IMG/VR virus record: IMGVR_UViG_3300025137_005045
Direction: 5' to 3' (one strand)
Origin: a virus
Lineage: Duplodnaviria; Caudoviricetes
DNA: 64,000 bases
Shown: positions 28,066-47,162 of the stretch, in pieces
Position numbering within the stretch: the first letter of the stretch is position 1
How the letters are laid out: each line of letters starts with the position of its first letter
The notes under the pieces: model-generated
What the model was told of the DNA's origin: nothing
The model's database searches: none
Seen by the model: only the letters and a program-made list of their open reading frames with translations
Position numbers and translations under genes: made by a program

Positions 28066-28809
28066 ATGGGATGGAAATCTAGAATACCTGATAAACCAGG
28101 ACATGTAAAATTAGCAATAGAGGCAATCGCTAAGGAAGGTTGGACTATCTTAGAAGGAGATAGGGTTCCAGCAAAAGCGTTAATAAAAGGATGTCGAACT
28201 GCTACTGATGACGACATTAGTAAACTTAGTATAACAAATTATCAAAATGCACAGCTTCAAGAAGCTCTTGGTTATGTTAAAAACTTTGACTGTGCCATCG
28301 ACGGTGGTGCTAATTACGGATTTATAGCATATCATCTAAATCATTTTAAACAAACACACGCATTTGAAATGTTCCCTCCAGTTAGAGAGTGTCTAGAAAA
28401 GAATGTTAAACATTTTGGTTTATCAAATATAAAAGTTCATCCTTGTGGGTTGGGCGAAACTGCCAAGAATGTAGCAATGCGATCTAAAGGTACTTTTGGA
28501 AATCATATACACCCCAACGGTGAAGAGGGCGATGGATCAATGAGAGTTATTACAATTGATAGCTTAAATTTAACAGCCTGCGATTTTATTAAATTAGACT
28601 GTGAAGGGTATGAACCTTTTATCATTCAGGGTGCAATCAATACTATAAGTAAATTTAAGCCAGTATTGCTTATGGAACATAAAAAATTAAGTGAATCATA
28701 CTACGGTGTTAAAGATAGAGAAGACCATATTAACTTATTAATAGATATGGGATATAAAATAATTAAACGATATAAAAAAGACATCATCATGGCACCAACA
28801 TGGCAATAG
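28066..28809 (+). CDS. FkbM-family SAM methyltransferase
   Basis: AIDGGANYG, AFE, IDSL...FIKLDCEGYE. Confidence 0.85.
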   Translation: MGWKSRIPDKPGHVKLAIEAIAKEGWTILEGDRVPAKALIKGCRTATDDDISKLSITNYQNAQLQEALGYVKNFDCAIDGGANYGFIAYHLNHFKQTHAFEMFPPVRECLEKNVKHFGLSNIKVHPCGLGETAKNVAMRSKGTFGNHIHPNGEEGDGSMRVITIDSLNLTACDFIKLDCEGYEPFIIQGAINTISKFKPVLLMEHKKLSESYYGVKDREDHINLLIDMGYKIIKRYKKDIIMAPTWQ

Positions 28810-29999
28810 ACGAAAAAATTAAAACATGCAGTTTCTGTGGTAAAACAAAAGAACAATCAAAGAAATTGATTATTGGAGAATCTGCTGGAATCTGTAACGA
28901 GTGTGTAAATTTTTGCCAAGAACTGTTAGGTCAGGATCTTGAAGAATTTGTTAAGTCAGAATTAGATCTTAATCCTATTAAAATTAAAGAACATCTTGAC
29001 AAGCATGTGATTGGTCAAGAAAATGCTAAAATAATGATCAGTGTATCTGTAGCCAATCACTATAAACGTATTGGTAAACAAACTCCTGTAGAAATTGACA
29101 AGGCCAATGTATTACTTTTAGGTCCTACCGGATGTGGTAAAACCATGCTAGCTAAAAGTATAGCAAAATATCTTGATGTTCCATTTGCTATTGCAGATGC
29201 TACAAGTTTAACAGAAGCAGGATATGTAGGAGATGATGCTGAAACTATGATTTCTAGATTGCTACATGCCTCCGGAGGAGATGTTAAAAAAGCAGAACGT
29301 GGTATTATTTTTATTGACGAACTAGATAAAATTACTCGTAAGAGCGAAAGCACAAGTATAACCAGAGATGTATCAGGTGAGGGAGTACAGCAAGCTCTCC
29401 TAAAAATAATAGAAGGTACTAAATGTCGTGTAAATCTAACAGGTAATCGTAAACATCCGTCGGGTGATATTGCAGAAGTAGATACTTCAAACATTTTGTT
29501 TATTGCTGGTGGTGCATTTGTAGGATTAGATGATCTTATTAAAAATAGAATCAGTAATACTGGAATGGGATTTGGGTCCACTCTGACAGATAATAAAGAA
29601 CAAATAGATCTTAATCAAGTATCGCCACAAGACTTACTCAAGTACGGATTAATTCCTGAGCTTGTTGGTCGATTCACTAATGTGGTTGCTCTTAAAGAAT
29701 TAGACGGAAGTCAATTAGCCCAAATATTAACAGACGTTAAAAATAATTTGGTAGATCAATACAAGTATTTGTTTGATTTGGACGGCGTTAAATTAGAAGT
29801 TACGCAAGATGCAGTTCAGGCAGTAGTTAAACGCACACAGACGCTTGAAACAGGTGCTAGAGGCCTACATACAGAACTAGAGCGTACACTTATGTCACAT
29901 ATGTATAACATATCTTCTTACAAAGATCAGGGCATAAAAACAGTGACCATTGATGAGCAACAGGTAAATAAACCAAAGATATTAACTAAAGAGGAATAA
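28800..29999 (+). CDS. clpX: ATP-dependent Clp protease ATPase ClpX
   Basis: C4 zinc finger CSFC...CNEC, Walker A GPTGCGKT, IIFIDE, RDVSGEGVQQALLK, GARGL; IGF loop reads MGF. Confidence 0.95.
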   Translation: MAIDEKIKTCSFCGKTKEQSKKLIIGESAGICNECVNFCQELLGQDLEEFVKSELDLNPIKIKEHLDKHVIGQENAKIMISVSVANHYKRIGKQTPVEIDKANVLLLGPTGCGKTMLAKSIAKYLDVPFAIADATSLTEAGYVGDDAETMISRLLHASGGDVKKAERGIIFIDELDKITRKSESTSITRDVSGEGVQQALLKIIEGTKCRVNLTGNRKHPSGDIAEVDTSNILFIAGGAFVGLDDLIKNRISNTGMGFGSTLTDNKEQIDLNQVSPQDLLKYGLIPELVGRFTNVVALKELDGSQLAQILTDVKNNLVDQYKYLFDLDGVKLEVTQDAVQAVVKRTQTLETGARGLHTELERTLMSHMYNISSYKDQGIKTVTIDEQQVNKPKILTKEE

Positions 30000-30281: not shown

Positions 30282-30346
30282 TTATACGTTGCCGCAATAG
30301 GGACGTATAAATTTAACTTGCTTAATTTAAGGAGATTTATATCATG
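30282..30346 (+). promoter_or_regulatory. ROSE-like RNA thermometer in hsp20 5' UTR
   Basis: Upstream hairpin TTATACGT/ACGTATAA (30282-30310), then UUGCU (30318-22) pairing with SD AAGGAG (30329-34) leaving the hallmark bulged G. Confidence 0.7.
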
Positions 30347-30784
30347 ACTAGACTAACGACTCTAGACCTACAACCGTTTTACAGAAACTCTGTTGGAATT
30401 GACAGAATATTTGATTCAATGATTAACAGAATAGAACACTCAAGTTCAACAACTAATTACCCACCATATAATATTATAAAAATTGACGATGACAACTATA
30501 AGATTGAAGTTGCTGTTGCTGGTTTTACCAAAGGCGAGATTGATGTGCAAACACATGACGGCCAATTAATTATTACAGGTGAGAAACAAGATCAAGAACC
30601 TAATGGGGACAACTACTTACACAGTGGTATTAGTAACCGTAAGTTTTTGAGAACGTTTGAACTAAGTGACTATGTAGAAGTAGCTTCGGCGAAAGTTAAA
30701 GACGGTATTCTCACAGTTGATTTAGAACGACATGTTCCTGAATCAATGAAACCAAAGACCATTGATATAAATTATAAATCATAG
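30344..30784 (+). CDS. Small heat-shock protein Hsp20 (IbpA-like)
   Basis: NYPPYNIIK, IEVAVAGF, YLHSGISNRKFLRTF, DGILTVDL, PKTIDI. Confidence 0.95.
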   Translation: MTRLTTLDLQPFYRNSVGIDRIFDSMINRIEHSSSTTNYPPYNIIKIDDDNYKIEVAVAGFTKGEIDVQTHDGQLIITGEKQDQEPNGDNYLHSGISNRKFLRTFELSDYVEVASAKVKDGILTVDLERHVPESMKPKTIDINYKS

Positions 30785-30863: not shown

Positions 30864-31169
30864 ATGACACAGACACAGGTAAAAAATAAAGTTAAACCAG
30901 ACGTTGTAGTTAAAGAACCTCCAATGTATAAAGTTATCTATGTCAATGACGAAGAGACATCGATGGAGTTTGTTGTGACTAGTCTTGTTGAATATTTTGA
31001 TTATACTGTGCAATTAGCGAATGAGAAAACATTAGAAGTTCATGAAGCCGGAGCGGCATCAGTAGCTGTTCTACCTTACGAAATAGCTGAACAAAAAGGT
31101 ATTGAAGTTACTCTGAGTGCTAGAACAAATGGCTATCCTTTAATGATTAAGATAGAGCCAACCGGTTAA
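30864..31169 (+). CDS. clpS: Clp adaptor ClpS
   Basis: EPPMYKVIYVNDEETSMEFVV, EVHEAG, YEIAEQK, YPL. Confidence 0.9.
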   Translation: MTQTQVKNKVKPDVVVKEPPMYKVIYVNDEETSMEFVVTSLVEYFDYTVQLANEKTLEVHEAGAASVAVLPYEIAEQKGIEVTLSARTNGYPLMIKIEPTG

Positions 31170-31945
31170 AGATCAATAATAATTTGTTTAGGATTGTAAG
31201 GTAGTCGATCCCAAGCATCTTCTATATTACGTCTTGGGTTTGAAACAAATCTAATTCCATCAAATACTTCATCTACAGGATTTTGATAGTGACCAAAACA
31301 CCAGGTATCTATTAATTCTTTACTATCAGCAAGTATACATTGATTTAATAACGTGTTACCTAATAAATTAAATCTAACACTTTCCTTACTTGCAGTATCA
31401 TGTATAAGTTGAGGAAGTGGAACCGTGTTAGTAACTATTATAATTTTTTCTACTTCTTCAATGGTTTGTAATCTTTCTATACTAGCACTTAGATATCGCA
31501 CATCACTATATGCTAAGGCATATATATTAGCCAATTCATTAGTATTACATTGCCAATCTTCTTTCAATAATTTTTCTGCTTGTTCATCATTTATCAATGG
31601 ATTAAAATCATAGGTCCACCATCCATTACATGCTACAAATGCAACTCCACTATAAATTGCAACATTATCTTGTAGGAAAACAACATTACCCATTCTACTA
31701 ATTTGTTTTTTGAGTTCTTTATAGCTTTCGTTCATATCGGACAAATGATCACGATGATCCAAACTGCCATCTATATAGAATACGGTTTTATATTGTTTAC
31801 CAAGATGTTTAAGTGTCTCAAGTAGTACGTTTCGATCACGTGAAATGTTACCGGCAACGACACAATATAGACTGGTCGGTTGACCTTCCCAGTTCAAATC
31901 GTATATAATGTTTAAGTCACTTATTAAGTCGAATGTAATTTGCAT
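31166..31945 (-). CDS. Calcineurin-like metallophosphoesterase, degenerate
   Basis: FDLISDLN, VVAGN, WCFGH, RFVSNPR; several metal ligands substituted. Confidence 0.65.
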   Translation of the reverse strand: MQITFDLISDLNIIYDLNWEGQPTSLYCVVAGNISRDRNVLLETLKHLGKQYKTVFYIDGSLDHRDHLSDMNESYKELKKQISRMGNVVFLQDNVAIYSGVAFVACNGWWTYDFNPLINDEQAEKLLKEDWQCNTNELANIYALAYSDVRYLSASIERLQTIEEVEKIIIVTNTVPLPQLIHDTASKESVRFNLLGNTLLNQCILADSKELIDTWCFGHYQNPVDEVFDGIRFVSNPRRNIEDAWDRLPYNPKQIIIDL

Positions 31946-31973
31946 TATAAGTAATTATGCCAGGAGACAACCA

Positions 31974-32336
31974 ATGAATATAGTATTAGAAAATCAAGTA
32001 ACAGATGATATAAAAGAAAAATTTATGCTAGCTGAGCTAGATAGTTTTCAGAATGAACCCGATGGTGTAGCTATCCAAAGCTACGCTGTAATCACTAAAG
32101 ATGAAATTAATCTTCAGGAAATACATAATGTTGAGAGATTTATAGACCTTCATAATAATCTGATGAAAAATTATAGAATCAGAAATTGGAAATATTGTGA
32201 AGATGCTATAGAACATTTAATGGGAAAGTTTAGAGGTGAGCTCGATAGCTTCTATACTGTATTAAATGAAAGAATCAATGCACTCAAAGACATAACTCTA
32301 GCTGAGGAGTGGACTCCCCACATTCAGCAGTACTAA
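31974..32336 (+). CDS. Stand-alone homologue of the C-terminal domain of the CHASE2 adenylate cyclase
   Basis: HNNLMKNYRIRNWKYC...LMGKFRGELDSFY...W resembles HQEMYASYQAQEFDKA...LKSHFEGQMTSYY...W of the 47163 ORF; AGGAG SD before ATG 31974. Confidence 0.55.
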   Translation: MNIVLENQVTDDIKEKFMLAELDSFQNEPDGVAIQSYAVITKDEINLQEIHNVERFIDLHNNLMKNYRIRNWKYCEDAIEHLMGKFRGELDSFYTVLNERINALKDITLAEEWTPHIQQY

Positions 32337-32378
32337 TTTATAGATTACTCCCTGATAAATAATAGTAGGGAGTAGCAA

Positions 32379-32861
32379 ATGAAAATATTAGTATACATAC
32401 TATTGGCTGTAAGTTTAAACATTTTGTTTATTGCTGGCGGTGGATTTGTAGGTACAGTAGTAGCACAACCAATGAATGATTTTACGTTCAAAAGTCCAGC
32501 CTTTAACGGTAATGGATACTCCGCACACGTATTAACAATAGAAAATCAAGAATTTAGTCGTAAAAAAGCACTAGCTGAGAAGATCGAATCTGAATTAAAA
32601 GACGCTGAGCGTGAAGCACAAAGCACTAATATTGCTAAGTTTATGAGTAACTTAGAATCTAGAATCTATGCACAAATATCACAAGATTTAGCTACAGCAA
32701 TGTTTACAGACGATGAATCAAGTCCAACAAGTGGTACCTTAAGTTTTGAAGGTAATATTATTAACTGGAATAGGTCAGCAGATATTATCACCTTAGGGGT
32801 CACAGACATTGTTGGAACAACAACCACAATTGAGATACCATTAGGTGATTTTACATTTTAA
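32379..32861 (+). CDS. csgF: Curli assembly protein CsgF-like
   Basis: Signal peptide, FTFKSPAFNGNGY...ENQE, LESRIYAQISQ; directly before csgG. Confidence 0.8.
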   Translation: MKILVYILLAVSLNILFIAGGGFVGTVVAQPMNDFTFKSPAFNGNGYSAHVLTIENQEFSRKKALAEKIESELKDAEREAQSTNIAKFMSNLESRIYAQISQDLATAMFTDDESSPTSGTLSFEGNIINWNRSADIITLGVTDIVGTTTTIEIPLGDFTF

Positions 32862-34192
32862 TGAAAATAATAATTATTTTATTGATGACTCTAACAATTT
32901 TAGGTTGTGCAACAGGACAGGCTATAAAACAAACATATGATGTGCCAGTACTAATAGAGAAAAGCACTGCTAAAGAATTTGATACTATACCGCCTCCAGC
33001 ATTAGGTAAGATAGTTGTAGCAGTATACTCGTTTACTGACAAGACCGGACAAAGACGTCCAAGCAATACGCAGTCAAGTTTTAGTACAGCAGTTACACAA
33101 GGATCAGATGCTTTTTTACTTAAAGCACTTGGTGATGTAGGAAGAGGAAGATGGTTCACAGTGGTTGAACGTGGAGGACTGCAAAGTATAACGCAAGAAA
33201 GACAGATTATTAGACAAATGCGTGAAGCTTATGATGGAGTTGACGCAAAGAAATTAATGCCAATGAAGTTTGCTGGTATGTTGATAGAAGGTGGCATAAC
33301 AGGTTACGATACTTCAACAAGAAGTGGTGGTATGGGCATGCGTGTATTAGGCATAGGACCACAAACACAATTTAGTGAGGATATTATCACTGTAAGTTTG
33401 CGAGCAATAAGTGTTAACACCGGCGAAGTGATTGCCGCAGTTAATGTACAGAAAACAATATATTCTACAGCAGACAGTATAGCAGTATTAAAATTCTTCG
33501 ACAATGACACACAGATTTTTGAATTTGAATCGGGAATTACATTAAATGAGCCAGCAACATTGGCAGTTAAAACTACAGTCGAAGCGGCAGTGGTTGAATT
33601 AATTAAAGAAGGTGAGCGTAAGGATATATGGGACTACGGTGAATATCCTGAGACAGTAGAGATAGAGCCTACAATTGTTGAAGTGATAAAGGAAGTTGAG
33701 GTAGTAAGGGAAGTTGAGGTAATAAAGGAAGTTGAGGTAATAAAAGAAGTTGAAGTGATAAAAGAAGTTGAAGTGATAAAGGAAGTTGAGGTAATAAAAG
33801 AAGTGTATACTGAACTACCGCCACTACAGGAAGAAGAGTCTATGGCTACGGTACTCAGTGATAACATTGATAAAATAGTGGCACGTATGAAGGATGTAGA
33901 AGTGATCGACGAAACGGTGCTTGAAGAAATTGCACCACAAGACGAACTGACTGTAAGTGATTTACCGCCATTACAGGAAGAGGAGATTATAACTCCTGAT
34001 CTTTACTATGACAGTATAAAAGAAGAGTACACTGAACTACCGCCATTACAGGACGAGGAGTCTTTAATTTTAGAGCGTTACAATGATGATATCAGTGAAG
34101 ATATTGATAAAGTAGTGACACGTGTTCAGGATGAATTAGAAGAATATTATCAACGATGTTTAGAATATAATCATGAGGAGAACTGTCCGTAA
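32861..34192 (+). CDS. csgG: Curli secretion channel CsgG with acidic repetitive C-terminal extension
   Basis: Lipobox ILG-C; VAVYSFTDKTGQ...FSTAVTQG...WFTVVERGGLQSITQERQIIR; EGGITGYD. Confidence 0.92.
   Translation: MKIIIILLMTLTILGCATGQAIKQTYDVPVLIEKSTAKEFDTIPPPALGKIVVAVYSFTDKTGQRRPSNTQSSFSTAVTQGSDAFLLKALGDVGRGRWFTVVERGGLQSITQERQIIRQMREAYDGVDAKKLMPMKFAGMLIEGGITGYDTSTRSGGMGMRVLGIGPQTQFSEDIITVSLRAISVNTGEVIAAVNVQKTIYSTADSIAVLKFFDNDTQIFEFESGITLNEPATLAVKTTVEAAVVELIKEGERKDIWDYGEYPETVEIEPTIVEVIKEVEVVREVEVIKEVEVIKEVEVIKEVEVIKEVEVIKEVYTELPPLQEEESMATVLSDNIDKIVARMKDVEVIDETVLEEIAPQDELTVSDLPPLQEEEIITPDLYYDSIKEEYTELPPLQDEESLILERYNDDISEDIDKVVTRVQDELEEYYQRCLEYNHEENCP
33677..33802 (+). repeat. Seven tandem 18-bp coding repeats (VEVIKE)
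   Basis: GTTGA(A/G)GT(G/A)(A/G)TAA(A/G)(G/A)GAA x7, in frame in csgG. Confidence 0.95.
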
Positions 34193-34252
34193 GTGATTTT
34201 TCAGACTTACAGGATAAAGTAGTAAAAATGCTTAATAAGCAAGGAAGGAAAA

Positions 34253-35164
34253 ATGAAATTTATTAAACTATTTGGAATGATGTTTCTTACGTTGTCAATG
34301 GCACATGCCGCTGACAATAGCATTTATATTGACCAAATTGGTAGTAGTTCTACCATTAATATAAAACAAGATGGATCAGGTAACAAAGTGTTTGGAGTAG
34401 GCGATTCTGAAGGAACTCCGGCCAAGTTTACAGGTTCATCGCAAACTGTTGATATTAGACAAGTGGGAGGTAGTAACATATTAGGTATTGATATGAACAC
34501 CACAGTCGTATCTGGTGTTGGTGTTGACCTCAAATACTACATCACAGGTTCGAACTCTGTAGCAAGTATTGATATCAATGGAGACGGCTTAGGAACAGCG
34601 GCTAACAATACCATTGACATTCAACAAACTGGTAACCTGAATGATTTAATCTTTGACTTACTAGGTACAGGAAATACAATTAATGCGGCAATGACAGGTG
34701 GTACTTTAAACGATCTTACTTTTGATATTGATGCTGATAGTTTAACTGTAGATGTTGCTGTTAGTGGAGGTGGCTCTAACAAAATTACATTAACACTTGG
34801 TTCAAGCAGTTCAGACATAGATATTACAACTGTCGGTGCTAGTAATCAAGTTACTTCTACACAAACTGGTGTAGGTGTATTTGACTTAGATGTCATTGCA
34901 AATAGCAGTAGTAACACAATCACAACTGTACAACGAGACGTTGGTAATAGTGGAACAGATATTAATATTACGTCCGCTGGATCTACCAATACAGTATCAA
35001 CTAGCCAAATTGGTTCCTCGGGTTCTTCAGGACATGAAATTGAAATAGATATTGCAGGAGCAAGCAACAACATAACAGTTACCCAGTCTGGAGGATTAGA
35101 AAATGATTCCAATATTGATATAACTGGTAGTAGTAATACTTGGACAATCACTCAGGAAGAATAA
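34253..35164 (+). CDS. Secreted curlin-repeat protein (CsgA/CsgB-like)
   Basis: Signal peptide AHA-A; repeated N-x-I-x-I-x-Q-x-G units (NSIYIDQIGSSSTINIKQDGSGN, NNTIDIQQTGNLN, NNITVTQSGG). Confidence 0.8.
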   Translation: MKFIKLFGMMFLTLSMAHAADNSIYIDQIGSSSTINIKQDGSGNKVFGVGDSEGTPAKFTGSSQTVDIRQVGGSNILGIDMNTTVVSGVGVDLKYYITGSNSVASIDINGDGLGTAANNTIDIQQTGNLNDLIFDLLGTGNTINAAMTGGTLNDLTFDIDADSLTVDVAVSGGGSNKITLTLGSSSSDIDITTVGASNQVTSTQTGVGVFDLDVIANSSSNTITTVQRDVGNSGTDINITSAGSTNTVSTSQIGSSGSSGHEIEIDIAGASNNITVTQSGGLENDSNIDITGSSNTWTITQEE

Positions 35165-35165
35165 A

Positions 35166-35336
35166 ATGCTTGAAGACGATGATGTTGTTATCATACACAG
35201 CTATCTAGGAGACGAGTCGTTATCGTTTGCAGGTTGGCTTAAGGTTGATCATAATATAGACGTTAACACTTTATCTTTAAAAGATCATGTTAAGTATCGT
35301 AAACTATGGACAAAAACTTCCCGCTATACTGGATAA
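35166..35336 (+). CDS. Small hypothetical protein (56 aa, not in track)
   Basis: ATG two bases after curlin stop; MLEDDDVVIIHSYLGDESLSFAGWLK... Confidence 0.4.
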   Translation: MLEDDDVVIIHSYLGDESLSFAGWLKVDHNIDVNTLSLKDHVKYRKLWTKTSRYTG

Positions 35337-36424
35337 TATCAATGTTCCTTATAATGCCAACATTGGCATGGGGAGCCGTTGGAAAAATTTCTGCTCAACA
35401 GCATGATATAGGGAGCATTACTCGTAATAAAGAAGTACTCAAAGCTGATCTTAATGCAACGATAGAAATGCTTGATGCATTAAGAACTACTCAAGGCACT
35501 CTGGAAATAACTTTTAAAGATGACACAATAGTACAAATGACCGAAAGTGCCAGGATGACTGTTGATGATTTTGTTTATGATCCAAAGAACAAAGACGCAG
35601 GCAAATTAGCAATTAAAATAGCGGCTGGTACTGCCAGATATGCATCAGGACAAATTGCTAAAGACAAACCTCAAGCAGTCAAAATTAAAACTCCAACAGC
35701 AACAATATCAGTTCGTGGTACAGACTTTACAACAACAGTGGATGAGATTGGTGCTACTACAGTTATCTTATTACCTAGTTGTCCTTTTGGATGGGCATCT
35801 ATAGAAAGAGATTGTAAAACAGGTGCCATTGATGTTGAAAGCATGGGAGGTATTGTGTATATGGATAAACCATTTCAAGCCACTCGTGTTCCTAATCTAG
35901 ATTCTAAACCAACTCCTCCGGTTATTGTTGATTTGACAGAAGAAATGATTAAGAACATTCTTATTACTGGTACACCAAAAGAGATTGAAGCTGAAGAAGT
36001 TGGCCAGACTAATGTATCTGCATTAGATAATAATGCTCTTGATCAGGACCTGTTAGAAAATGAATTAGATAAAGCAGATGAACAATTGTATGTAAACAAA
36101 CTTAATCAAAACTTGTTAGAGAGAGACTTTCTGGTTAATGTGCTAGATATTTTAAATATGCAGTTAGCACTGGCACAAGAGAGAATACTATCTGTCTCAG
36201 AGAAGAATGAACTACTGCCTGATTTTATTCCTGACCAAGGTGTGACATTTACCACCGACGGTATAATAGTTGAATTGTGCATGGACACAACAGGTAGTGA
36301 CATAAGCTGTATTACAGTTCCTGAGAATCAAGAAACTACTATACGACAGATACAAGGTGCAGTTGATATAACCAACAGAGTAATTGATAATGGTACTACC
36401 ACCATTACCACGGAACAAAACTAA
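35306..36424 (+). CDS. FecR-domain periplasmic protein
   Basis: LEITFKDDTIVQMTESARMTVDDFVYDP...GTARYASG...IKTPTATISVRGTDF. Confidence 0.88.
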   Translation: MDKNFPLYWIISMFLIMPTLAWGAVGKISAQQHDIGSITRNKEVLKADLNATIEMLDALRTTQGTLEITFKDDTIVQMTESARMTVDDFVYDPKNKDAGKLAIKIAAGTARYASGQIAKDKPQAVKIKTPTATISVRGTDFTTTVDEIGATTVILLPSCPFGWASIERDCKTGAIDVESMGGIVYMDKPFQATRVPNLDSKPTPPVIVDLTEEMIKNILITGTPKEIEAEEVGQTNVSALDNNALDQDLLENELDKADEQLYVNKLNQNLLERDFLVNVLDILNMQLALAQERILSVSEKNELLPDFIPDQGVTFTTDGIIVELCMDTTGSDISCITVPENQETTIRQIQGAVDITNRVIDNGTTTITTEQN

Positions 36425-37773
36425 TGATTAGAATATTCACACTTGTATTTTTGTTGTTAATTATATCGAATTTTTTAACAACAAAAGCAGAGGCCGCAAC
36501 CGGACTAACTTATACAACTTTAGCTTGTGGGACCTCCTGGCCCTGCTCATTGACCGGTTCCGTTTTATCTACGGGAACTATTTCCACTGGAGACGTGAAT
36601 TTAAATTGGGGCAGTGGAGAAGTATTAGACTCTGGTAGAAGTGATTATGTTGTTGTAAAACTAGAAGGCTATTTTGTAATGCCAGGAACAGCAGGAACAA
36701 GTTATTCAGTAGAATTTACAAACCAAGATGATGATGGGTCAAGAACTATAATTGGTGGAACAACAGTCATTGATGATTGGTCTGGACTACACTCACCAGC
36801 AGACAGAAGTGGTACTATTACCTTAGTTGGTGGAACAACCTATTCATATCTGAGATATATGTCAGAATGGACTGGTGGTGCTGTATTAAGACAATTTTGG
36901 AAAATAGGTTCTGGCTCTAGAACTTATATGAATTTTGCAGACGACTTTACCACAACATCAAGTCCTGTAACATCAACAACCACCGGTACAAGTAGTGGTA
37001 TAAGTTCTAGTCAAGCAACTACAGTATCAACAGCAAGAACCAGAGCAACAGCGGCAAGTGCAGGTACTAACCCAGATAATTCTGTTTATATAGATCAAGC
37101 TGGTTCCAGTAATACTGTAGTGATTCTACAAGATGGTTCATCAGGTAATCATATACGAGGCATAGGAGTTGACAATGCATCTTTAGTAGGTGACTCCAAT
37201 GACATTGAGATTAAACAGGGTGCTGGTACATCAGGTGATGGAGTTAATTTAATTGAATTAATGGTTGATGGTGATACCAATGATCTAAAACTATATCAAG
37301 ATAGATACGACGATGGAACACCAGATGCAGACCCATCCGGTGATCATATCATTAAGCTGGATGTTGATGGTAATTTAAATGATATTGAAGTAATTCAACG
37401 AGCAAATGGTACAGTTGGTCATTTTGCTGAAATAGATATAACTGGCAATTCTAGTAATTTTGATATTCTACAAAAAGGACAATCCGAAAAACAATTGTTT
37501 ATAGATGTAACTGGTAATAGCAATATAATAGATGTTACACAACGAGACAGCTCATCTAAATTTGCGGATATAAAATTAATTGGAAATGGTCATGATGTGA
37601 CTGTACTACAAAAAGGAACAGGTGCTCATAACGCAACAATTGATTTAACTTTTGGTTCAGGAGCAAGCACTGTGGATTTAACACAACAAGGTAGTTCAAA
37701 TCAATCATATTCTCTAGAACAAATTTGTTACGATGTATCCGGGTGTTCAACTACAGTAACCCAAGGATATTAA
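36424..37773 (+). CDS. Secreted PA14 domain + Ser/Thr linker + curlin-repeat protein
   Basis: Signal peptide; VNLNWGSG...VKLEGYF...DDDGSR...VIDDW...EWTGGAVLRQFW (PA14); C-terminal Q-x-G-x-x-N repeats. Confidence 0.8.
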   Translation: MIRIFTLVFLLLIISNFLTTKAEAATGLTYTTLACGTSWPCSLTGSVLSTGTISTGDVNLNWGSGEVLDSGRSDYVVVKLEGYFVMPGTAGTSYSVEFTNQDDDGSRTIIGGTTVIDDWSGLHSPADRSGTITLVGGTTYSYLRYMSEWTGGAVLRQFWKIGSGSRTYMNFADDFTTTSSPVTSTTTGTSSGISSSQATTVSTARTRATAASAGTNPDNSVYIDQAGSSNTVVILQDGSSGNHIRGIGVDNASLVGDSNDIEIKQGAGTSGDGVNLIELMVDGDTNDLKLYQDRYDDGTPDADPSGDHIIKLDVDGNLNDIEVIQRANGTVGHFAEIDITGNSSNFDILQKGQSEKQLFIDVTGNSNIIDVTQRDSSSKFADIKLIGNGHDVTVLQKGTGAHNATIDLTFGSGASTVDLTQQGSSNQSYSLEQICYDVSGCSTTVTQGY

Positions 37774-37930: not shown

Positions 37931-37959
37931 TTGACAATACAAACTATACTAACTATAAT
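37931..37959 (+). promoter_or_regulatory. Consensus sigma70 promoter
   Basis: TTGACA-17 nt-TATAAT. Confidence 0.8.
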
Positions 37960-37983
37960 AGTTAACTACGGAACCATATTATT

Positions 37984-39030
37984 ATGACTAAAAAAACTTT
38001 AACCACTTTTTATGCTTTAGCATATCTATTAATATCAGGAGGAGTAATTGCACTTGCTAACCCTTCTTGGAATATAATATCAGTATTGATTGCTATACCA
38101 ATACTATATGGAATATTTGAAACTAAATTCTTTACGAATGATAGCAAAGTAAAATGGGCTCAGGCGTTCGTATATATTGGCAGTATAACAACATTAATAT
38201 TTCTATTTGATTGGACAATGTTATTATTAGGAATTGTTGCTGGATGGGTATTATTTGGAGTTGGAGTTAGTATATGTTTACATAAGTGGGCTTCACACAA
38301 GACATTTATACCTAAAAATAAATTTTGGAAAATAATTATTTTATTTTTTGGAACATTATGCACATTAGGTAGCACTATTAGTTGGGCCGCTGGACATAGA
38401 GAACACCATAGATTTACTGATAAGGATGGTGATCCGCATCGACCTGCAGGAAGTTTATGGCATAAAATTAAAGTTTACTTTTATTATTTCCCAACATATC
38501 CAATTAGCCCTATGTTAATTAAAGACCTTACAGTAGATCGTGATCATAAATGGTTTCATAGAAATTATTATAAAATCATATATGCGTACATATTAGGTTT
38601 GTTTTTAATTAATCCTAGCTATGCAGGATACTTTTATTTTATACCAGCGTTATATGTGTTTACAGGCATAAGTTGGGTAACAGTAATAGCACATATACCA
38701 ACCAACGGACGTTTTGGATTTAGAAAAGATACCTGGCGTATATACAAAAGTGATGATTACACATATAACAGTCACATTTGGCAATTCCTGTTAATGGGAG
38801 AAGGATATCATAATACACATCATAGTAGTCCATGGTTATGGAATAATGCTATATTACCTGGAGAGTTTGATATATCTGCAACAATTATTAAACATATAGG
38901 TATACCTAACGACAAACAACCTAAAGAATGGGATAGTGTTCGTCGAGGGCAGGAAATGTTTGATGAAATACAAGCAGAAGTTGCTAAAAATGAACAAGAC
39001 GATAGTCTAGCTGTACCAAAAGCAACATGA
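37984..39030 (+). CDS. Membrane fatty-acid desaturase (delta-9-like)
   Basis: His boxes HKWASH, HREHH, HNTHH; GEGY motif; TM helices. Confidence 0.9.
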   Translation: MTKKTLTTFYALAYLLISGGVIALANPSWNIISVLIAIPILYGIFETKFFTNDSKVKWAQAFVYIGSITTLIFLFDWTMLLLGIVAGWVLFGVGVSICLHKWASHKTFIPKNKFWKIIILFFGTLCTLGSTISWAAGHREHHRFTDKDGDPHRPAGSLWHKIKVYFYYFPTYPISPMLIKDLTVDRDHKWFHRNYYKIIYAYILGLFLINPSYAGYFYFIPALYVFTGISWVTVIAHIPTNGRFGFRKDTWRIYKSDDYTYNSHIWQFLLMGEGYHNTHHSSPWLWNNAILPGEFDISATIIKHIGIPNDKQPKEWDSVRRGQEMFDEIQAEVAKNEQDDSLAVPKAT

Positions 39031-39752
39031 GCAAACCTATTGCATTAGTAGGTCATAGAGCTGGAATGGATTTAATAATTGATATTACTGACGCTATGGG
39101 ACTAGAGATTGCTGGTATTTTTGACAAATATTTTTACGGTAATACAGACAGTACAGAAGGTATTCCTTTTATTGGAAACGAAGAAGAAATTACAGAAGAT
39201 GATATTGAAAAATATAATTTTGTTTTAACATCTAATTATGTTGGTCATGCAAAGTTAACTAATTATGAACACAATGGTGACAATCTAAGACAACGTCGTA
39301 TTAAAATATTTAAAGATCGCAATTTACCTACAGCTAATCTTATTCATCCTAATTCATATGTAGGAGATAAGACACATATTGGATCAAGTGTAATCATTGG
39401 TAGAGACTGCTATGTACGAGCTAATTCACATATAGGTGATTTTTGCTTTCTTGATAGCGGAGCGGCAGTGGCTCATGATGTACATCTTGGGGAAAATGTA
39501 ATTATAACTCCTTATAGTTTCGTTGCTGGTTTTGTTAATATTGGAAATAATGTAATGATTGGAGCAGGATCAAAGATAGTAAATGGTTATAGTGATAGAT
39601 CATTAAACATTGGAGACAATGTAAAAGTTATGGCCGGTTCAACAGTTTTTAAAGATGTGCCAGAAGGGAAATTTGTTACAAACACAGGTAAAATTTTACG
39701 AAGAATTGATTTAAAAAAGGAAAAGGAAAAGGAAAATGGATTACAAGATTAA
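39027..39752 (+). CDS. Hexapeptide-repeat sugar acetyltransferase (NeuD/PglD-like)
   Basis: N-terminal Rossmann-like region, NLIHP, left-handed beta-helix repeats, [11 protein letters not shown]. Confidence 0.85.
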
Positions 39753-41022
39753 AGACTTAGATCTAGCAGACTGGGGTCATAAAGAAATAGCTATCGCAGA
39801 AACAGAAATGCCAGGATTAATAGCTGTTAGAGAAGAATTTAAGGATCAACAACCTTTAAAAGGTGCCCGAATTACAGGTAGCTTACACATGACAGTGCAA
39901 ACTGCTGTGCTAGTTGAAACTTTGGTTGCGTTAGGTGCTAGTGTACGCTGGAGTTCATGTAATATCTTTTCAACACAAGATCATGCCGCGGCCGCATTAG
40001 CAGAACAGGGAATTCCTGTATTTGCTTGGAAAGGCGAAACAGAAGAAGAGTATTGGTGGTGTATAGAACAAACACTAGAAGGACCCGATGGATGGAAACC
40101 AAATATATTACTAGACGACGGTCACGATCTAACTGGTTATATTATGGACAATCGTCCTGACTTACTGGATGATATTGTTGGAGTAACGGAAGAAACAACT
40201 ACAGGCATACACAAGATATTGGAACGTATTGAAAAAGGTAAAATGCTATTACCAGCTATCAATGTTAATGATTCTGTAACCAAAGCTAAGTTTGATAACT
40301 TGTATGGTTGTCGTGAAAGTTTAGTTGATGGTATTAAGCGTGCCACTGATGTTATGATAGCAGGTAAGACTGCTGTGGTAGCAGGCTACGGTGATGTTGG
40401 TAAAGGTTCAGCACAGGCATTGAAAGCATTATCAGCTCAGGTATGGATAACTGAAGTAGATCCAATTTGTGCTTTACAAGCCGCAATGGAAGGATTCAAA
40501 GTAGTCACCATGGACTATGCTAAAGATAAGGCAGACATCTTCGTAACAGCAACAGGCAACGTTGATGTTATTACTAAAGAACACATGATAGCAATGAAAA
40601 ACAATGCCATTGTTTGTAATATTGGACACTTTGATAGTGAAATTGATATTGCTGGTGTAAGTGATTTTGGATGGGATGAAATTAAACCACAAGTAGATCA
40701 TGTTACCTTGCCGAGTGGTAATAAAATTATTATTCTGGCAAGAGGTAGATTGATTAATCTAGGTTGTGCCACAGGACATCCTAGTTATGTTATGTCAAAC
40801 TCATTTACTAATCAAGTGCTAGCACAAATAGAAATGTTTAATAATCCTGACAGCTATGAAACAGGCAAACTCTATCTACTACCTAAACATCTAGATGAAA
40901 AAGTAGCAGAGCTACATCTGGCTAAAGTAGGTGCAGAATTAACCCGTTTAACGGATAAACAAGCTGAATATATTTCAGTTCCTGTTAACGGCCCTTATAA
41001 GGTGGAAACATATAGATATTAA
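39736..41022 (+). CDS. ahcY: S-adenosylhomocysteine hydrolase
   Basis: [58 protein letters not shown]. Confidence 0.98.
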
Positions 41023-41103
41023 CACTATATGTTGTGCTTTTTTTAAACCCAGCCACTGGATTACGATAAATATTACAGTAATATTACATAGGAAACATTT
41101 TAT

Positions 41104-41883
41104 ATGAAAGCATTAAAAATAGCAGTATTATCAACAGTATTTTTAACGTCGGCTGTTGTAGCTGACGAACATAGCAGAACAAAAGCTACAGTAGATACTA
41201 GTAATAACTGGAACATATCAGTTACAGCTACTAGTGAGTATCTATTTCGTGGTCTAAAACAAACTCAAGGTGACCCTGCACTACAAGCTAGTATAGATTA
41301 TAACTTTGATGGTGGACTGTATGCCGGTGCATGGGCAAGTACAGTTAAATGGACCGAAGAAGGCTACATGAATAACAACGATGTAGAAACTAACTTTTTT
41401 GTAGGTTATTCAGACACACTTGGACAAACAGGTATTGGATATGACGTAGGTGTATTACAATACTATTATCCAGGTACTGTTAAAAATGGTGTTGCAGATA
41501 CTGACGCAACAGAAATTTATGCTGGTGTTAACAAAGACATACTTGGCATGAATTGGGCTGTTAAATATTCTCAAGTTGTCTCAGATGATGCTTGGGGAAT
41601 TGGAGATGCTGATGGTAGTCAATATGTTGAAGCAAATCTAACAGTTCCATTAACAGAAAAACTTTCAGCACTTGCTCATGTAGGTCGCTCTGAGTTTGAC
41701 GGTAATGGCAATGACGTATATGATTATACTGACTGGTCACTTGGTGCAGAATATGCAGTAGGCGATTATGTTACAGTAGGTGCTGGTTACTCAGACACAA
41801 ATACTAACGAAGCAAACTGGACCCTTAATGGTGAAGACCAAGGTAAAGGACAAACACTTGCTTGGTTAACATACGCATTCTAA
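41104..41883 (+). CDS. TorF-family putative outer-membrane porin
   Basis: Signal peptide; SEYLFRGLKQTQGDPALQASIDY...YAGAWAS; YDVG...YYYPG; terminal Phe. Confidence 0.88.
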   Translation: MKALKIAVLSTVFLTSAVVADEHSRTKATVDTSNNWNISVTATSEYLFRGLKQTQGDPALQASIDYNFDGGLYAGAWASTVKWTEEGYMNNNDVETNFFVGYSDTLGQTGIGYDVGVLQYYYPGTVKNGVADTDATEIYAGVNKDILGMNWAVKYSQVVSDDAWGIGDADGSQYVEANLTVPLTEKLSALAHVGRSEFDGNGNDVYDYTDWSLGAEYAVGDYVTVGAGYSDTNTNEANWTLNGEDQGKGQTLAWLTYAF

Positions 41884-41902
41884 ATTAAATTAGAATAAAT
41901 TG

Positions 41903-41928
41903 AAAGCACCTTTGGGTGCTTTTTTTTT
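41903..41928 (+). terminator. Rho-independent terminator
   Basis: AAAGCACC-tttg-GGTGCTTT followed by T-run. Confidence 0.85.
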
Positions 41929-42039
41929 GAAAAAGAAACGATACAATAAAGATTACAGTTAGATTACAAAAATGCAATTAGTGCTTGCTTTTTCTTAAAA
42001 TCCTAGTAAAATATAGTTTTAAGTAATTAAATACAATTG

Positions 42040-42318
42040 ATGAAAACATTCAAATACTATTTCAACAAAACTATCATCACACTTTGTATTCTCTTCTTTT
42101 TCGTAATATGGTATCAAGTACTTTCTAAAATAATATGTAATTCATTTTGTGAAGTTGAGCAAGAAGTGCAAGGAGTTGTTATAGCATATGAGGATATGAC
42201 TCCTGAACAACGTCGAGCAGAATTTGAAAAACTAAAAGCACAAAGGACAGCAGAAAATGAAAAAAATAGTAGTATTACTAACACTACTGGCAGTGTCAAC
42301 ATTAGCTCTAGCAGATAA
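42040..42318 (+). CDS. Single-TM hypothetical protein
   Basis: N-terminal TM, helical C-terminus; overlaps porin start. Confidence 0.45.
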   Translation: MKTFKYYFNKTIITLCILFFFVIWYQVLSKIICNSFCEVEQEVQGVVIAYEDMTPEQRRAEFEKLKAQRTAENEKNSSITNTTGSVNISSSR

Positions 42319-42820
42319 ACCAGGATACTATTCAGCTATTAAGTTTAGTATAGAAGAAAGTAATACTGGAGGAAGTGACAGTACTAAATGGGCAGTCAAA
42401 TATGGTAAGCACATTAACAAACATCTTGATGCTGAATTATATACAAGAACAAAAGACAAAGACTCTGGTAGTAATGATACAAGAGTAGAAGCCGCAGTGA
42501 TTGGCAAGTACAAACTAACAGATGATTGGTCAACTAGTCTTAGAGTTGGTGCTGGTAACAAATATACACGAACTGATGACTTTGGTTATTGGACAGTTAC
42601 ACCAGCAGTAAAATATAAAATTACTGACAAGCTAAGTGCTAAACTTGGATATAGATTTCGTGACGCATTTGAAACAGAAAGACAACAGAATGACCAAACA
42701 ATTAAGTTAGGCATTGGCTACAAGTTAACCAGTGATGTATCTCTAGGTGCTGGCTATGACTGGAAACGTGGTGACAGTGATGCTGACGGTTTTGGAGTTG
42801 GTTTTAAATTCGAATTTTAA
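42257..42820 (+). CDS. Small outer-membrane beta-barrel (KdgM/porin-like)
   Basis: Signal peptide ALA-D; alternating aromatic beta-strands; ends GFKFEF. Confidence 0.75.
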   Translation: MKKIVVLLTLLAVSTLALADKPGYYSAIKFSIEESNTGGSDSTKWAVKYGKHINKHLDAELYTRTKDKDSGSNDTRVEAAVIGKYKLTDDWSTSLRVGAGNKYTRTDDFGYWTVTPAVKYKITDKLSAKLGYRFRDAFETERQQNDQTIKLGIGYKLTSDVSLGAGYDWKRGDSDADGFGVGFKFEF

Positions 42821-42865
42821 TAATATTGTATAATGGTAGGTGTTGAGTACTAAATAATATTACAA

Positions 42866-42909
42866 CGTTCATCCCACTGGGACGGAAGTAGGCATAAGCT
42901 GAAGGAACG
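42866..42909 (+). ncRNA. Glutamine riboswitch (glnA RNA motif)
   Basis: P1 CGTTC(42866-70)/GAACG(42905-09), P2 TCCC-act-GGGA, E-loop GACGGAAGTAGG...GAAGGAACG, short P3. Confidence 0.85.
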
Positions 42910-42934
42910 CTTCTTGTTAAAAGGAGGTAGCTTT

Positions 42935-43129
42935 ATGTATGCTAAAGAAAATAATACATCCACCATATTAAAAATTGCAACATTGTTAGATCTTGAAGTA
43001 AAAGAAGTAACTAAATTTCTTGAACTAATGCTAGACGGATACAACTTCACAGATGCCCTTAACGGTTGTCATTTGACCAGAGAGGACTGTGAACTAGTAT
43101 TAGCAGAACTTAAGAAAAGAAAAAAATAA
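42935..43129 (+). CDS. 64 aa protein downstream of the riboswitch
   Basis: Strong SD AAGGAGGT at 42921-28, ATG 42935; helical with basic tail. Confidence 0.7.
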   Translation: MYAKENNTSTILKIATLLDLEVKEVTKFLELMLDGYNFTDALNGCHLTREDCELVLAELKKRKK

Positions 43130-43144
43130 TATGGTACAACTTAG

Positions 43145-43170
43145 AAAAGCACTTTTAGGAGTGCTTTTTT
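43145..43170 (+). terminator. Rho-independent terminator
   Basis: AAAAGCACT-tttagg-AGTGCTTTT. Confidence 0.85.
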
Positions 43171-43242
43171 ATTGTCTATAATAAATACCTTTAAGCACAA
43201 GACCAAAAGTCTTATTTTACTAATTTTTCAAAAAGGTAATAT

Positions 43243-43353
43243 ATGGCCAATAAGAATTGCTACTGGAGACCAGAGACAGATGATGATATGGAATGGTTAA
43301 ACAGCCTGGCGAAACCCATAAAACCCATAAAACCCACTGATCAAAAGAAGTAG
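43243..43353 (+). CDS. Small orphan peptide (36 aa, not in track)
   Basis: Late box 43182, AAGG SD; MANKNCYWRPETDDDMEWLNSLAKPIKPIKPTDQKK. Confidence 0.4.
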   Translation: MANKNCYWRPETDDDMEWLNSLAKPIKPIKPTDQKK

Positions 43354-43379
43354 ACATATCTAACTATAGACTATATAAT
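43351..43379 (+). promoter_or_regulatory. sigma70-type promoter (near-leaderless)
   Basis: TAGACA-17 nt-TATAAT; ATG follows 7 nt after the -10 box. Confidence 0.55.
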
Positions 43380-43386
43380 ATAACTT

Positions 43387-44145
43387 ATGATAGTCATAAC
43401 AGGTTACGGTTACGTAGGAAAAGCCATCGAATCGGCACTAATTCCACACGTTGATATAGCTATTGTTGATCCAATGATCAACGATAAACGTGTGTCTGAC
43501 TTTGATGCTGAAGCAGTAATCGTAGCTGTATCAACACCCAACACACTAGACGGTAGTTGTAACATGCAAAACGTATTTGATGTATTGGCAGATGTACCCG
43601 AAGATGTTCCTGTACTAATTAAATCAACTATATCAATAGAAGGATGGAACGAACTGACTGATAAGTATCCTGATCATAAGATTACATTTAGTCCAGAGTT
43701 TCTAAGAGCTAACACTGCAATCGAAGACTTTCACAATCAGGACTATGTATTTTTAAGTGGTGATAATCATAAGTATTGGGAAAAACTATTCTTAGATACT
43801 ATTAAGAAACCAAGTCAGATTTATTCAGCTGAAGAACTTATATTAGCTAAACTATTTCGGAACAGTTTTCTAGCAACCAAAGTTACATTCTTTAATCAGG
43901 TCAATGACTTATGTCAACGATTAGAGTTAGACTACGAGAAAGTCAGAAAGATTATCACAGATGATCAGCGTATAGGTACTGGCCATTCACAAGTTACAGA
44001 AGAACGTGGATATGGTGGACACTGCTTACCTAAGGATACAGAAGCACTATTAAAAAGTGCATTGCAACATGGATGTAGTATGAGCTTAATTCAAGAAGCA
44101 ATTCGATATAATAAACATATTAAGAAAAAAACTAATAAATATTGA
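43387..44145 (+). CDS. UDP-glucose/GDP-mannose dehydrogenase family, short form
   Basis: ITGYGYVG, IKST, FSPEFLR, GYGGHCLPKD; lacks C-terminal domain. Confidence 0.85.
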   Translation: MIVITGYGYVGKAIESALIPHVDIAIVDPMINDKRVSDFDAEAVIVAVSTPNTLDGSCNMQNVFDVLADVPEDVPVLIKSTISIEGWNELTDKYPDHKITFSPEFLRANTAIEDFHNQDYVFLSGDNHKYWEKLFLDTIKKPSQIYSAEELILAKLFRNSFLATKVTFFNQVNDLCQRLELDYEKVRKIITDDQRIGTGHSQVTEERGYGGHCLPKDTEALLKSALQHGCSMSLIQEAIRYNKHIKKKTNKY

Positions 44146-44146
44146 T

Positions 44147-44896
44147 ATGCTTACAACAATACTTTTTTTCGCTCTTTGTTATCACATACTATGGGCAACG
44201 TTCTCTATAGGTGTTCATCGACAACACATGCACACATATTGGAAATTAAATCCTGTGTTAGATCATTTATTTAGATTTATATTATGGCTAACTTGGGGAG
44301 CATTGAATTTTAAAAATGCAATACCAAATTTAGTAGCTCAGCATCGAAAACATCATGCACAAAGTGATCAATGGAACGATATTGATAATTATGATCCTGT
44401 AAGTCCTCATGTGTTTAGTTTAAGAAAGCTGTTAGATTTTTCAAAAATTCGTCCAGGAACACAATACTGGATAAATCCAAAAGATATATCAATTTGGGGT
44501 AAAGGTGCAACATCCTATGATGATTGGATAGAAAACAACATATATGTAAAATATCCTACATCAGGATTAACCATATTATGGATAATTGCTACTTTTTTAT
44601 TTGGATGGCCTGGTTTTATAATAGGTGGTTTATATAAATTTTCAATCAAAAAGGTAGTAGCATTCCATGCGGCATGTTTGCACGTAGTTGGATATAGAAC
44701 TCAAAAAGCTAAACTGTCTTCTGATAGATCGTTGAATACATTTCCGTTATCATTAGTAACTGCTGGAGAAGGATTGCATGGTAATCATCATGATAATTGT
44801 CGTCCAAGTAATTTTTCATTTCACTGGTGGGAATTAGATTTGGGTTATTGGTATGCTGTTGGTTTATCTAAGCTAAAACTTTTAAAATTTATCTAA
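44147..44896 (+). CDS. Second membrane fatty-acid desaturase
   Basis: HRQHMH, HRKHH, GEGLHGNHH, WWELDLGY. Confidence 0.85.
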   Translation: MLTTILFFALCYHILWATFSIGVHRQHMHTYWKLNPVLDHLFRFILWLTWGALNFKNAIPNLVAQHRKHHAQSDQWNDIDNYDPVSPHVFSLRKLLDFSKIRPGTQYWINPKDISIWGKGATSYDDWIENNIYVKYPTSGLTILWIIATFLFGWPGFIIGGLYKFSIKKVVAFHAACLHVVGYRTQKAKLSSDRSLNTFPLSLVTAGEGLHGNHHDNCRPSNFSFHWWELDLGYWYAVGLSKLKLLKFI

Positions 44897-45051
44897 AGAT
44901 ACAGAAGCACTGTACAGTAATAGGTAAATCTTATTATCCCCATTTAAACATTCAACAAGCAAAACCTGTTAAAAATCAAATTACTATAGTATAATTAAAT
45001 AAGTACAATACTATGAGAAAGGAATTAATTATGGAAAGAGAAGAATAAATT

Positions 45052-46272: not shown

Positions 46273-46295
46273 TTGAATATAAGGAAAAATTTAAA

Positions 46296-46798: not shown

Positions 46799-46852
46799 TT
46801 GTTTGTTAGTATATAAAACTTTAAACTAGCATTACACTGTTTAAAAATTTAG

Positions 46853-47141: not shown

Positions 47142-47162
47142 TATTAACAACTAGATAAAATT

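Follow-up and report, generated by a model that had tools for sequence, protein, structure and literature searches.

Genes of the curli pathway have been described in marine phages over the last years. In 2020, csgF and csgG were reported together with three linked genes in pelagimyophages, and "sibling capture" was proposed for them (PMC7029224, 2020). A csgF/csgG pair was later described in the OM43 phage Melnitz, where csgA/B were believed to be absent and the pair was regarded as a pore that times lysis (PMC9004378, 2022). In the same year, a module comprising CsgF, CsgG, CsgA/B, FecR, a second CsgA/B and an adenylate cyclase, with a histidine kinase gene immediately upstream, was described in podo- and myo-pelagiphages; its genes were present at all 65 GOV2.0 stations, transcripts were reported, phage curli genes represented approximately 0.1% of the assembled viral proteins, and the roles proposed were aggregation, superinfection defence and import (PMC9599517, 2022). 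The hosts of the published phage modules have no curli genes of their own (PMC9004378; PMC9599517), and the modules lack parts of the CsgE, CsgC or CsgD type, as do most non-gammaproteobacterial curli loci (PMC9599517). Here, a locus of this kind was analysed at positions 32379-37773 of a 64,000-nucleotide stretch of Caudoviricetes DNA (IMG/VR record IMGVR_UViG_3300025137_005045), which is called the window in the following. The locus is a member of the known viral type VIII secretion system (T8SS, or curli) module of marine phages and does not represent a new system. What may be new is the PA14 head of its second curlin, a domain that is unannotated in phage HTVC008M too, and the modularity of that protein; no paper was found on either.

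The module is composed of five co-oriented, tightly packed genes on the + strand, which encode a CsgF-like protein (32379-32861), the lipoprotein CsgG (32861-34192), a first curlin (34253-35164), a FecR-domain protein (35306-36424) and a second curlin in which PA14, a linker and curlin repeats are fused (36424-37773). Two of the junctions within this set are 1-nucleotide stop/start overlaps. All five open reading frames (ORFs) stand where a preliminary description of this DNA had placed them, and by hidden Markov models CsgF, CsgG, FecR, PA14 and, in the fusion, Curlin_rpt were found above the Pfam cut-offs, with curlin 1 below. The five names in that gene list were correct, and two further members had been overlooked: a CHASE2 adenylate cyclase (47163-49214, + strand, 683 residues), which is the sixth conserved gene of the module, and a 142-residue ORF (31908-32336, + strand) related to the tail of that cyclase. 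By using the FecR protein as query, 80 IMG/VR loci were fetched, and the order CsgF-CsgG-curlin-FecR was present in 80 of 80, with a second curlin and the CHASE2 cyclase nearly always next; the same order is found in HTVC008M and Melnitz, and the FecR scan matched at least 570 confirmed viral stretches. In GenBank, two curlin-repeat proteins, a FecR protein and a cyclase are annotated in Melnitz, and a "curlin minor subunit CsgB" note has accompanied HTVC008M since its deposit. The idea that a phage carrying its own curli subunits was a novelty had therefore to be abandoned, as a module with CsgA/B subunits and FecR was published in 2022 (PMC9599517) and is annotated in Melnitz.

HTVC008M and Melnitz, T4-like phages of the Kyanoviridae, carry the modules most closely related to this one. 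A megablast search of the locus against GenBank phages gave no match, and relatives were detectable only at the protein level. The proteins of the window lie on phage DNA of approximately 293 kb, twice the size of HTVC008M, attributed to an uncultured marine jumbo phage. Marine metagenomes of several studies contain near-identical DNA, and the surrounding ribonucleotide reductase, ligase and tail-fibre-like genes fit a large phage. With the T8SS module of pelagiphages and methylophages (HTVC008M, Melnitz, metagenome-assembled genomes (MAGs) of pelagimyophages and HTVC023P-type podophages) the locus shares the gene order and the marine habitat, and its CsgG is 44-46% identical. It differs in that the cyclase is set apart by a 9.4-kb island with a sigma-70 promoter of its own, CsgG has a unique 181-residue acidic repeat tail, and no histidine-kinase Pfam domain was found upstream, where the paralogue of the cyclase tail stands in its place.

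The reading preferred here, with a probability of roughly 60%, is that the phage curli module builds a lectin-decorated surface fibre late in infection, with the FecR protein most likely acting as a partner of the cyclase. A pore with its own substrates, a lectin-like head and late expression had already been suggested in the preliminary description, and the suggestion fits the export signals, the solenoid models, the PA14 fold and the late box; it is the novelty that did not stand. On inspection, Sec-type signal sequences are visible on all five proteins, and all five products would leave the cytoplasm by the Sec route.

The CsgF-like protein (160 residues) has a Sec signal peptide and matches Pfam CsgF (PF10614) with 47.5 bits against a cut-off of 25.8 (E 2.6e-12), over profile positions 22-132 of 132, and phrog_35372 with an E value of 1.5e-50. 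Among 36 viral CsgFs the N-terminal motif of the mature protein is the most conserved part, with P31, D34, F37, K38, P40, F42, G44 and G46 invariant. In Escherichia coli, it is the N-terminal part of CsgF that plugs into the CsgG barrel. The viral protein is thus counted as an accessory protein with a putative N-terminal CsgG-binding peptide, through which it would dock in the CsgG channel. CsgG itself (443 residues) is composed of a core, residues 1-261, and an acidic tail. It matches PF03783 with 165.8 bits against a cut-off of 20.8 (E 1e-48), and residues 4-261 align to E. coli CsgG structures with an E value of 4e-46. The lipobox reads L-G-C16, the cysteine being kept in 77 of 81 viral CsgGs, and the viral family also preserves the channel-loop segment SFSTAVTQG; once lipidated, the protein would form an outer-membrane channel. 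In the PHROGs database, the CsgF, CsgG and FecR proteins fall into viral families that have no assigned function.

The tail of CsgG comprises 181 residues (33644-34192), with a net charge of about -41, and carries seven EVIKEV repeats, three ELPPLQ(E/D)EE motifs and a terminal cysteine pair. The repeats are encoded by a tandem array of 18 nucleotides x 7.1 (33677-33804, + strand; Tandem Repeats Finder score 179), and none of the fetched loci contains a relative of the tail. In another marine sample, the DNA contigs are broken inside this repeat and have loose ends there, which may point to a variable copy number. C-terminal extensions of 40-180 residues are present in 29 of 67 distinct viral CsgGs (loci L037, L030, L082, L043, L068 and others). 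Many of them start with spacers rich in Pro, Val, Lys and Glu, which recall TonB-type linkers, and continue into a short conserved domain. Such extensions would be periplasmic and could reach partners in the wall or the inner membrane.

Curlin 1 (303 residues) starts with a signal peptide ending in AHA, and the curlin-type repeats begin right after it, a separate targeting segment at the N-terminus being absent. The protein is a curlin despite a sub-threshold Pfam score, since several lines of evidence lead to the same assignment. Firstly, its residues repeat with a period of 23. Secondly, the family profile, made from 34 members, matches the solved curli subunits 8c50 (E 9e-5) and 8enq (E 0.005). 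Thirdly, hhalign relates it to the family of the fusion protein with 99.4%, linking the first repeats of both curlins. Finally, the AlphaFold2 model is made entirely of strand-turn-strand units, with a mean predicted local distance difference test (pLDDT) of 84 and a predicted template modelling score of 0.82, and its best solved match is the CsgA 8c50, with Z 24.6 over 261 residues and the next match at 18.8 (VIA-align on Foldseek candidates). Foldseek alone, run with this model against the PDB and AFDB Swiss-Prot, returned nothing significant, the CsgA match being obtained only with VIA-align. There are 473 homologues of curlin 1, and the alignment of 34 curlin sequences has 43 invariant columns. 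The earlier assignment as a curlin-repeat protein with a signal peptide is therefore borne out by the signal peptide, the profile matches to curli subunits and the solenoid model. In the preferred reading, curlin 1, the presumed major subunit, would be exported unfolded and, by polymerising outside the cell, give rise to a beta-solenoid fibre of the curli type.

The second curlin (449 residues) is made of a signal peptide, a PA14 head (residues 28-161; 36505-36906, + strand), a Thr/Ser-rich linker (residues 162-217) and a curlin solenoid (residues 218-449; 37075-37770, + strand). Both Pfam domains exceed their cut-offs, PF07691 PA14 with 27.4 bits against 24 and PF07012 Curlin_rpt with 45 against 20.7, and the AlphaFold2 model (pLDDT 79) has the same three parts, a PA14 sandwich, a low-confidence linker and a solenoid, as the fusion proposed earlier would require. 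In an unbiased comparison of the model with 48,161 solved chains, the best match was the PA14 domain of RsgI3 (Z 20.0, root-mean-square deviation (rmsd) 1.8 Å, 142 residues) and the second was the CsgA 8c50 (Z 19.4, 29% identity). The family profile likewise matches the RsgI3 PA14 (E 5e-25), 8c50 (E 7e-17) and E. coli CsgA (E 0.013). The solenoid has the strand-turn-strand build and the 23-residue period of curlin 1, with 9-10 repeats in each curlin, and ends in an invariant cysteine pair. In the head, D103 is invariant and the DDG segment is conserved and aligns with that of solved PA14 domains; from this sequence and the model, the head is predicted to bind carbohydrate. Curlin 2 would join or seed the curlin 1 fibre by its curlin repeats, with the PA14 head displayed on the surface of the infected cell.

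Both predicted solenoids have their best solved solenoid match in the same crystal structure, that of CsgA R15.5 of Pontibacter korlensis (8c50; PMC10192328), a long multi-repeat solenoid with 20% and 29% identity to curlins 1 and 2, respectively. The Pontibacter protein is bacterial and headless, and the rmsd is high (8.7-8.8 Å), so that the twist or the curvature differs between 8c50 and the curlin models. The head finds its counterparts in the PA14 domains of clostridial RsgI3, of the Lap RTX adhesin (6m8m), of Marinomonas primoryensis and of the yeast Flo/Epa proteins, all surface-exposed and similar in fold (Z 13-20, rmsd 1.8-3.7 Å), but none of these domains sits on a curlin. The PA14 domain is unmentioned in PMC7029224, PMC9004378 and PMC9599517, and a full-text literature search found no paper linking PA14 to curlins in phages. 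The architecture is not restricted to this window: the HTVC008M protein AGE60352, a "hypothetical protein" of 441 residues, has PA14 and curlin parts and is 35% identical to curlin 2 from end to end, and more than 100 metagenomic clusters have the same architecture. The second curlin of Melnitz (338 residues) gave no PA14 match.

A comparison of 69 complete second curlins revealed that the head is exchanged. In 33 it is of the PA14 type, in 15 it comes from five other sequence families, and 21 are headless, while the curlin part remains alignable throughout, whatever the head. The second curlin would thus appear to combine a constant domain for export and anchoring with an exchangeable binding head. 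Ten of the non-PA14 heads matched no Pfam family. Searches of the ESM Atlas offered two leads, to be taken as leads only. One alternative head, that of L031:4748-6268, is structurally near bacterial "choice-of-anchor L" domains and also near a cluster (TM score 0.79) that is 100% viral and has an autotransporter beta-domain in 30% of its members; phages may display such a head by type V as well as by type VIII secretion. Another head resembles NIDO domains. As a tentative extension, less probable than the module reading itself, curlin 2 could be regarded as a "choice-of-anchor" display protein, in which the curlin serves T8SS export and fibre anchoring and an N-terminal head, exchanged between phages, retargets the fibres of infected cells to different glycans or particles. 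The exchanged heads would be PA14, a jelly roll resembling choice-of-anchor L, a NIDO-like domain and no fewer than three others, and some phages would do with no head. It is conceivable, at similarly modest odds, that the targets are different and probably strain-specific glycans or particles; and it might be, with no greater confidence, that the heads evolve like receptor-binding proteins, acting from the host surface and not from the virion.

Expression of the module appears to start from a single site. A T4-type late-promoter-like element, GATAAATA (32354-32372, + strand), precedes csgF, with TAAATA at 32356-32361, 23 nucleotides before the ATG, and the Shine-Dalgarno sequence AGGGAG after it. 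The late box noticed earlier at 32356 is therefore confirmed, and its position is conserved: of 63 distinct regions upstream of csgF in related phages, 26 have TAAATA between -35 and -14, where the background is 1% (binomial p ~1e-34). No comparable late box precedes the other four genes. A consensus sigma-70 promoter (37931-37959, + strand; TTGACA, 17 nucleotides, TATAAT), with 12 of 12 consensus matches and the best site in the region, opens the next transcription unit. As the late box stands only before csgF and the sigma-70 promoter starts a new unit, csgF-csgG-curlin1-fecR-curlin2 look like one late transcription unit, which the late-type promoter would drive. A search of RNA data with the whole locus listed no RNA sample. 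With curlin 1 alone as the query, short contigs were obtained from three seawater metatranscriptome runs, each of a different study; the other module genes are uncovered in these runs, which says nothing about those genes. The curlin 1 pieces are a weak hint of transcription, because DNA can occur in such libraries.

With the enterobacterial CsgBAC/CsgDEFG system, the module shares a homologue of the CsgG lipoprotein channel, a CsgF of the same family and curlin-repeat subunits with weak direct profile matches to E. coli CsgA. The phage subunits are, however, 2-3 times longer, one of them has a folded N-terminal lectin-like domain, curlin 1 lacks the separate N-terminal targeting segment, FecR and cyclase genes are interleaved with the secretion genes, and the whole is virus-borne. 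No CsgE, CsgC or CsgD was found among the module ORFs by Pfam, in agreement with what had been noted before, and no match was found to the chaperone CsgH; the scan covered the module ORFs and not the rest of the window. These parts are not needed for membership of the wider family, because they are missing from most non-gammaproteobacterial curli loci. A possible further relative is the Caulobacter holdfast anchor, in which HfaA, HfaB and HfaD provide an alphaproteobacterial CsgG-like exporter and multimerising, curlin-like proteins by which a polysaccharide adhesin is held at the surface. In the searches made here, HfaD was only a weak Foldseek row (E 0.1), and the phage module differs by having CsgF and Pfam matches to Csg families.

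The FecR-domain protein (372 residues) probably starts at M13, position 35342, as in the gene callers; the Atlas copy also begins at residue 13. Its FecR domain, from residue 59, scores 38.4 bits against a Pfam cut-off of 24 (E 1.7e-9), and the protein matches phrog_37870 with an E value of 4e-102. No other gene of the module is as well conserved, the top 120 among 3741 homologues being 46-98% identical over the full length. C159, C170, C325 and C335 are invariant in the family, all members (100%) of the nearest Atlas clusters are viral, and the viral protein has a conserved extra C-terminal part of 200 residues. Comparison of the family profile with solved structures gave chance-level rows only. 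The FecR domain named in the preliminary description is present, but the protein has neither an anti-sigma domain nor a transmembrane architecture, only an N-terminal signal-type hydrophobic segment that would make it periplasmic. It was for this reason that its reading as the anti-sigma regulator of the iron-citrate system, with which it shares the domain, was rejected. No sigma-factor or TonB-receptor gene was found in the module.

The cyclase matches Pfam CHASE2 (E 5e-35) and Guanylate_cyc (E 1.2e-17). It lies downstream of the module in most of the 80 related loci, with a gap to curlin 2 of 0-4.6 kb in the 52 loci measured, and some loci have no cyclase within reach. In the window, the distance is 9.4 kb, the cyclase being displaced by a gene island; as the gap ranges so widely in other loci, it is an insertion hot spot. 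The 142-residue ORF directly upstream of the late box matches cyclase residues 578-674, the C-terminal post-catalytic region (BLASTP E 3e-5), and has no Pfam family. It stands directly upstream of csgF in approximately 25 related loci, where the C-termini of the cyclases were also matched by tblastn, and it may be the gene called HK in PMC9599517. In bacteria, FecR-domain proteins adjoin CHASE2 sensors (PMC5192318; PMC5498481), and this neighbourhood was present in approximately 10 of the 69 bacterial loci fetched. In the BiofilmReg operon of Burkholderia, a FecR-domain protein with a signal peptide is encoded with a CHASE2 membrane sensor, and in Sinorhizobium, the FecR-domain protein SMc02177 is a target of the cyclic AMP (cAMP) regulator Clr, in a regulon below CHASE2 cyclases such as CyaD1. 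The phage pair differs from such cassettes in being interleaved with secretion genes and in the extra C-terminal part of its FecR protein. A complex prediction for FecR residues 24-372 and CHASE2 residues 29-312 with paired alignments gave 0.00, 0.34 and 0.00, which speaks neither for nor against a complex. By analogy with the bacterial pairs, and given the missing anti-sigma architecture and the strong conservation, the FecR protein is most likely a periplasmic partner of the CHASE2 cyclase, and would link envelope events to cAMP.

From the same observations a different view of the whole module could be drawn, namely that FecR, the CHASE2 cyclase and the paralogue of its tail form an envelope sensor that sets cAMP, with CsgG, CsgF and curlin serving as its outer-membrane antenna, by analogy with FecA and FecR. 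It would accommodate the conservation of FecR, the co-occurrence of the cyclase in most loci, the recurrence of FecR-CHASE2 pairs as a bacterial signalling cassette, the free cyclase-tail paralogue at the head of the module and the long, presumably periplasmic tails of many viral CsgGs. It leaves unexplained, however, why there should be two polymer-type subunits of 9-10 repeats and why heads should be swapped; the loci with no cyclase within reach speak against it as well, and the links from FecR to CsgG and to the cyclase have no direct support. It was thus judged improbable, although it is the strongest of the alternatives to a surface fibre.

Several points weigh against such a fibre, and some of them favour a second alternative. 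Melnitz cultures showed no clumping in cytograms or by transmission electron microscopy (PMC9004378), the phage CsgF was modelled as divergent from that of E. coli (PMC9004378), and in the literature consulted no experiment reported fibres from any phage module. Neither the viral CsgF family profile nor phmmer matched a CsgF chain among the solved structures, and curlin 1 misses the Curlin_rpt cut-off of Pfam (16.5 against 20.7 bits). The constriction of the E. coli CsgG loop, formed by Tyr, Asn and Phe, is only partly kept in the phage protein: the Phe of SFSTAV is conserved, whereas the Asn before it is replaced by Ser and conservation is lacking at the Tyr position. As CsgG passes unfolded chains, the PA14 head of 135 residues and the cysteine pair must cross before folding and oxidation. 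Finally, the module has no CsgE-like specificity factor. A channel with no CsgE gate could be ungated, and the absence of clumping in Melnitz would be expected if CsgG, with or without CsgF, served only as a channel in the outer membrane, timing lysis or passing molecules in or out, the curlins being relics or having unrelated roles. This was proposed for Melnitz (PMC9004378) and also raised for pelagimyophages (PMC7029224). Against this stands the fate of the curlins, which are kept in place across 80 loci (the second nearly always), their signal peptides being intact and their repeats strongly conserved; relics would not give 43 invariant columns across 34 sequences. Moreover, CsgF is always present, yet a bare pore would not need it, and the Melnitz paper assumed csgA/B to be absent where GenBank annotates two curlin-repeat proteins. 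A pore alone is therefore regarded as unlikely, slightly more so than the sensor. That the curlins are instead fibres or decorations of the phage particle, with the PA14 head as the receptor-binding domain of the virion, is highly improbable: beta-solenoids and PA14-like lectin domains do occur in tail spikes and fibres, and tailspikes are among the lower structural matches, but the best solved match is a curli subunit and not a tailspike, the genes lie between csgG/csgF and that for the putatively periplasmic FecR protein and not in a structural module, and the cleavable Sec signal peptides of both curlins contradict a virion role and led to its rejection, as tailed-phage virions assemble in the cytoplasm.

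For the surface fibre, the likely benefit would be a sticky, glycan-binding coat late in infection, which could hold neighbouring hosts or particles near the burst, or mask receptors. Host aggregation and a block to superinfection had been put forward for this DNA before; the idea is consistent with the locus, but both are hypotheses already published (PMC7029224; PMC9599517).

As to the origin of the module, a scan of genome contigs for a bacterial source of the whole returned only 11 MAG contigs of discordant taxonomy (L084-L094), labelled Pelagibacter, Flavobacteriaceae, Legionellales, Rhodobacteraceae, Pirellulales, Polynucleobacter, Caulobacteraceae and Bacteroidetes. All carry the complete module in the viral order and are probably phage DNA mis-binned into bacterial genomes. 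True bacterial relatives of the FecR protein were found to have no Csg neighbours.

Among the neighbouring genes, the spacer between curlin 1 and fecR contains a doubtful gene, a 56-residue ORF (35166-35336, + strand) with no Pfam or PHROG match. Among the fetched loci it is kept only in the nearest relative (L003/L012), with 56% identity, and it overlaps the long start of fecR, not the M13 start of other gene callers. The island between curlin 2 and the cyclase (37931-47160) stands behind the sigma-70 promoter and encodes a fatty-acid desaturase, a hexapeptide transferase, a fragment of a UDP-glucose dehydrogenase, an NqrF-like reductase and an apparent S-adenosylhomocysteine hydrolase, a candidate named from its sequence only. 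It also includes two predicted outer-membrane beta-barrels, Gcw_chp (41104-41883) and OMP_b-brl (42257-42820), and the phage would thus encode envelope proteins beyond CsgG. Upstream of the module, a ClpX-like ATPase (28800-29999) and an Hsp20 (30344-30784) are encoded, and a 101-residue ORF (30864-31169) is, by eye, a candidate ClpS.

The displaced cyclase and the unique acidic repeat tail on CsgG are local peculiarities of the window. The lectin-type head swapped among phages represents a concrete target for glycan arrays and display assays, and such an experiment is feasible, because HTVC008M, which shares the PA14-headed subunit, is in culture with Pelagibacter HTCC1062; the natural fusions of head and curlin could also serve as templates in the engineering of curli display. 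In the ocean, curli modules encoded by phages are abundant. If they work, infection would coat free-living plankton with sticky amyloid, which would affect aggregation, attachment to particles, the rates at which phages are encountered and gene exchange.

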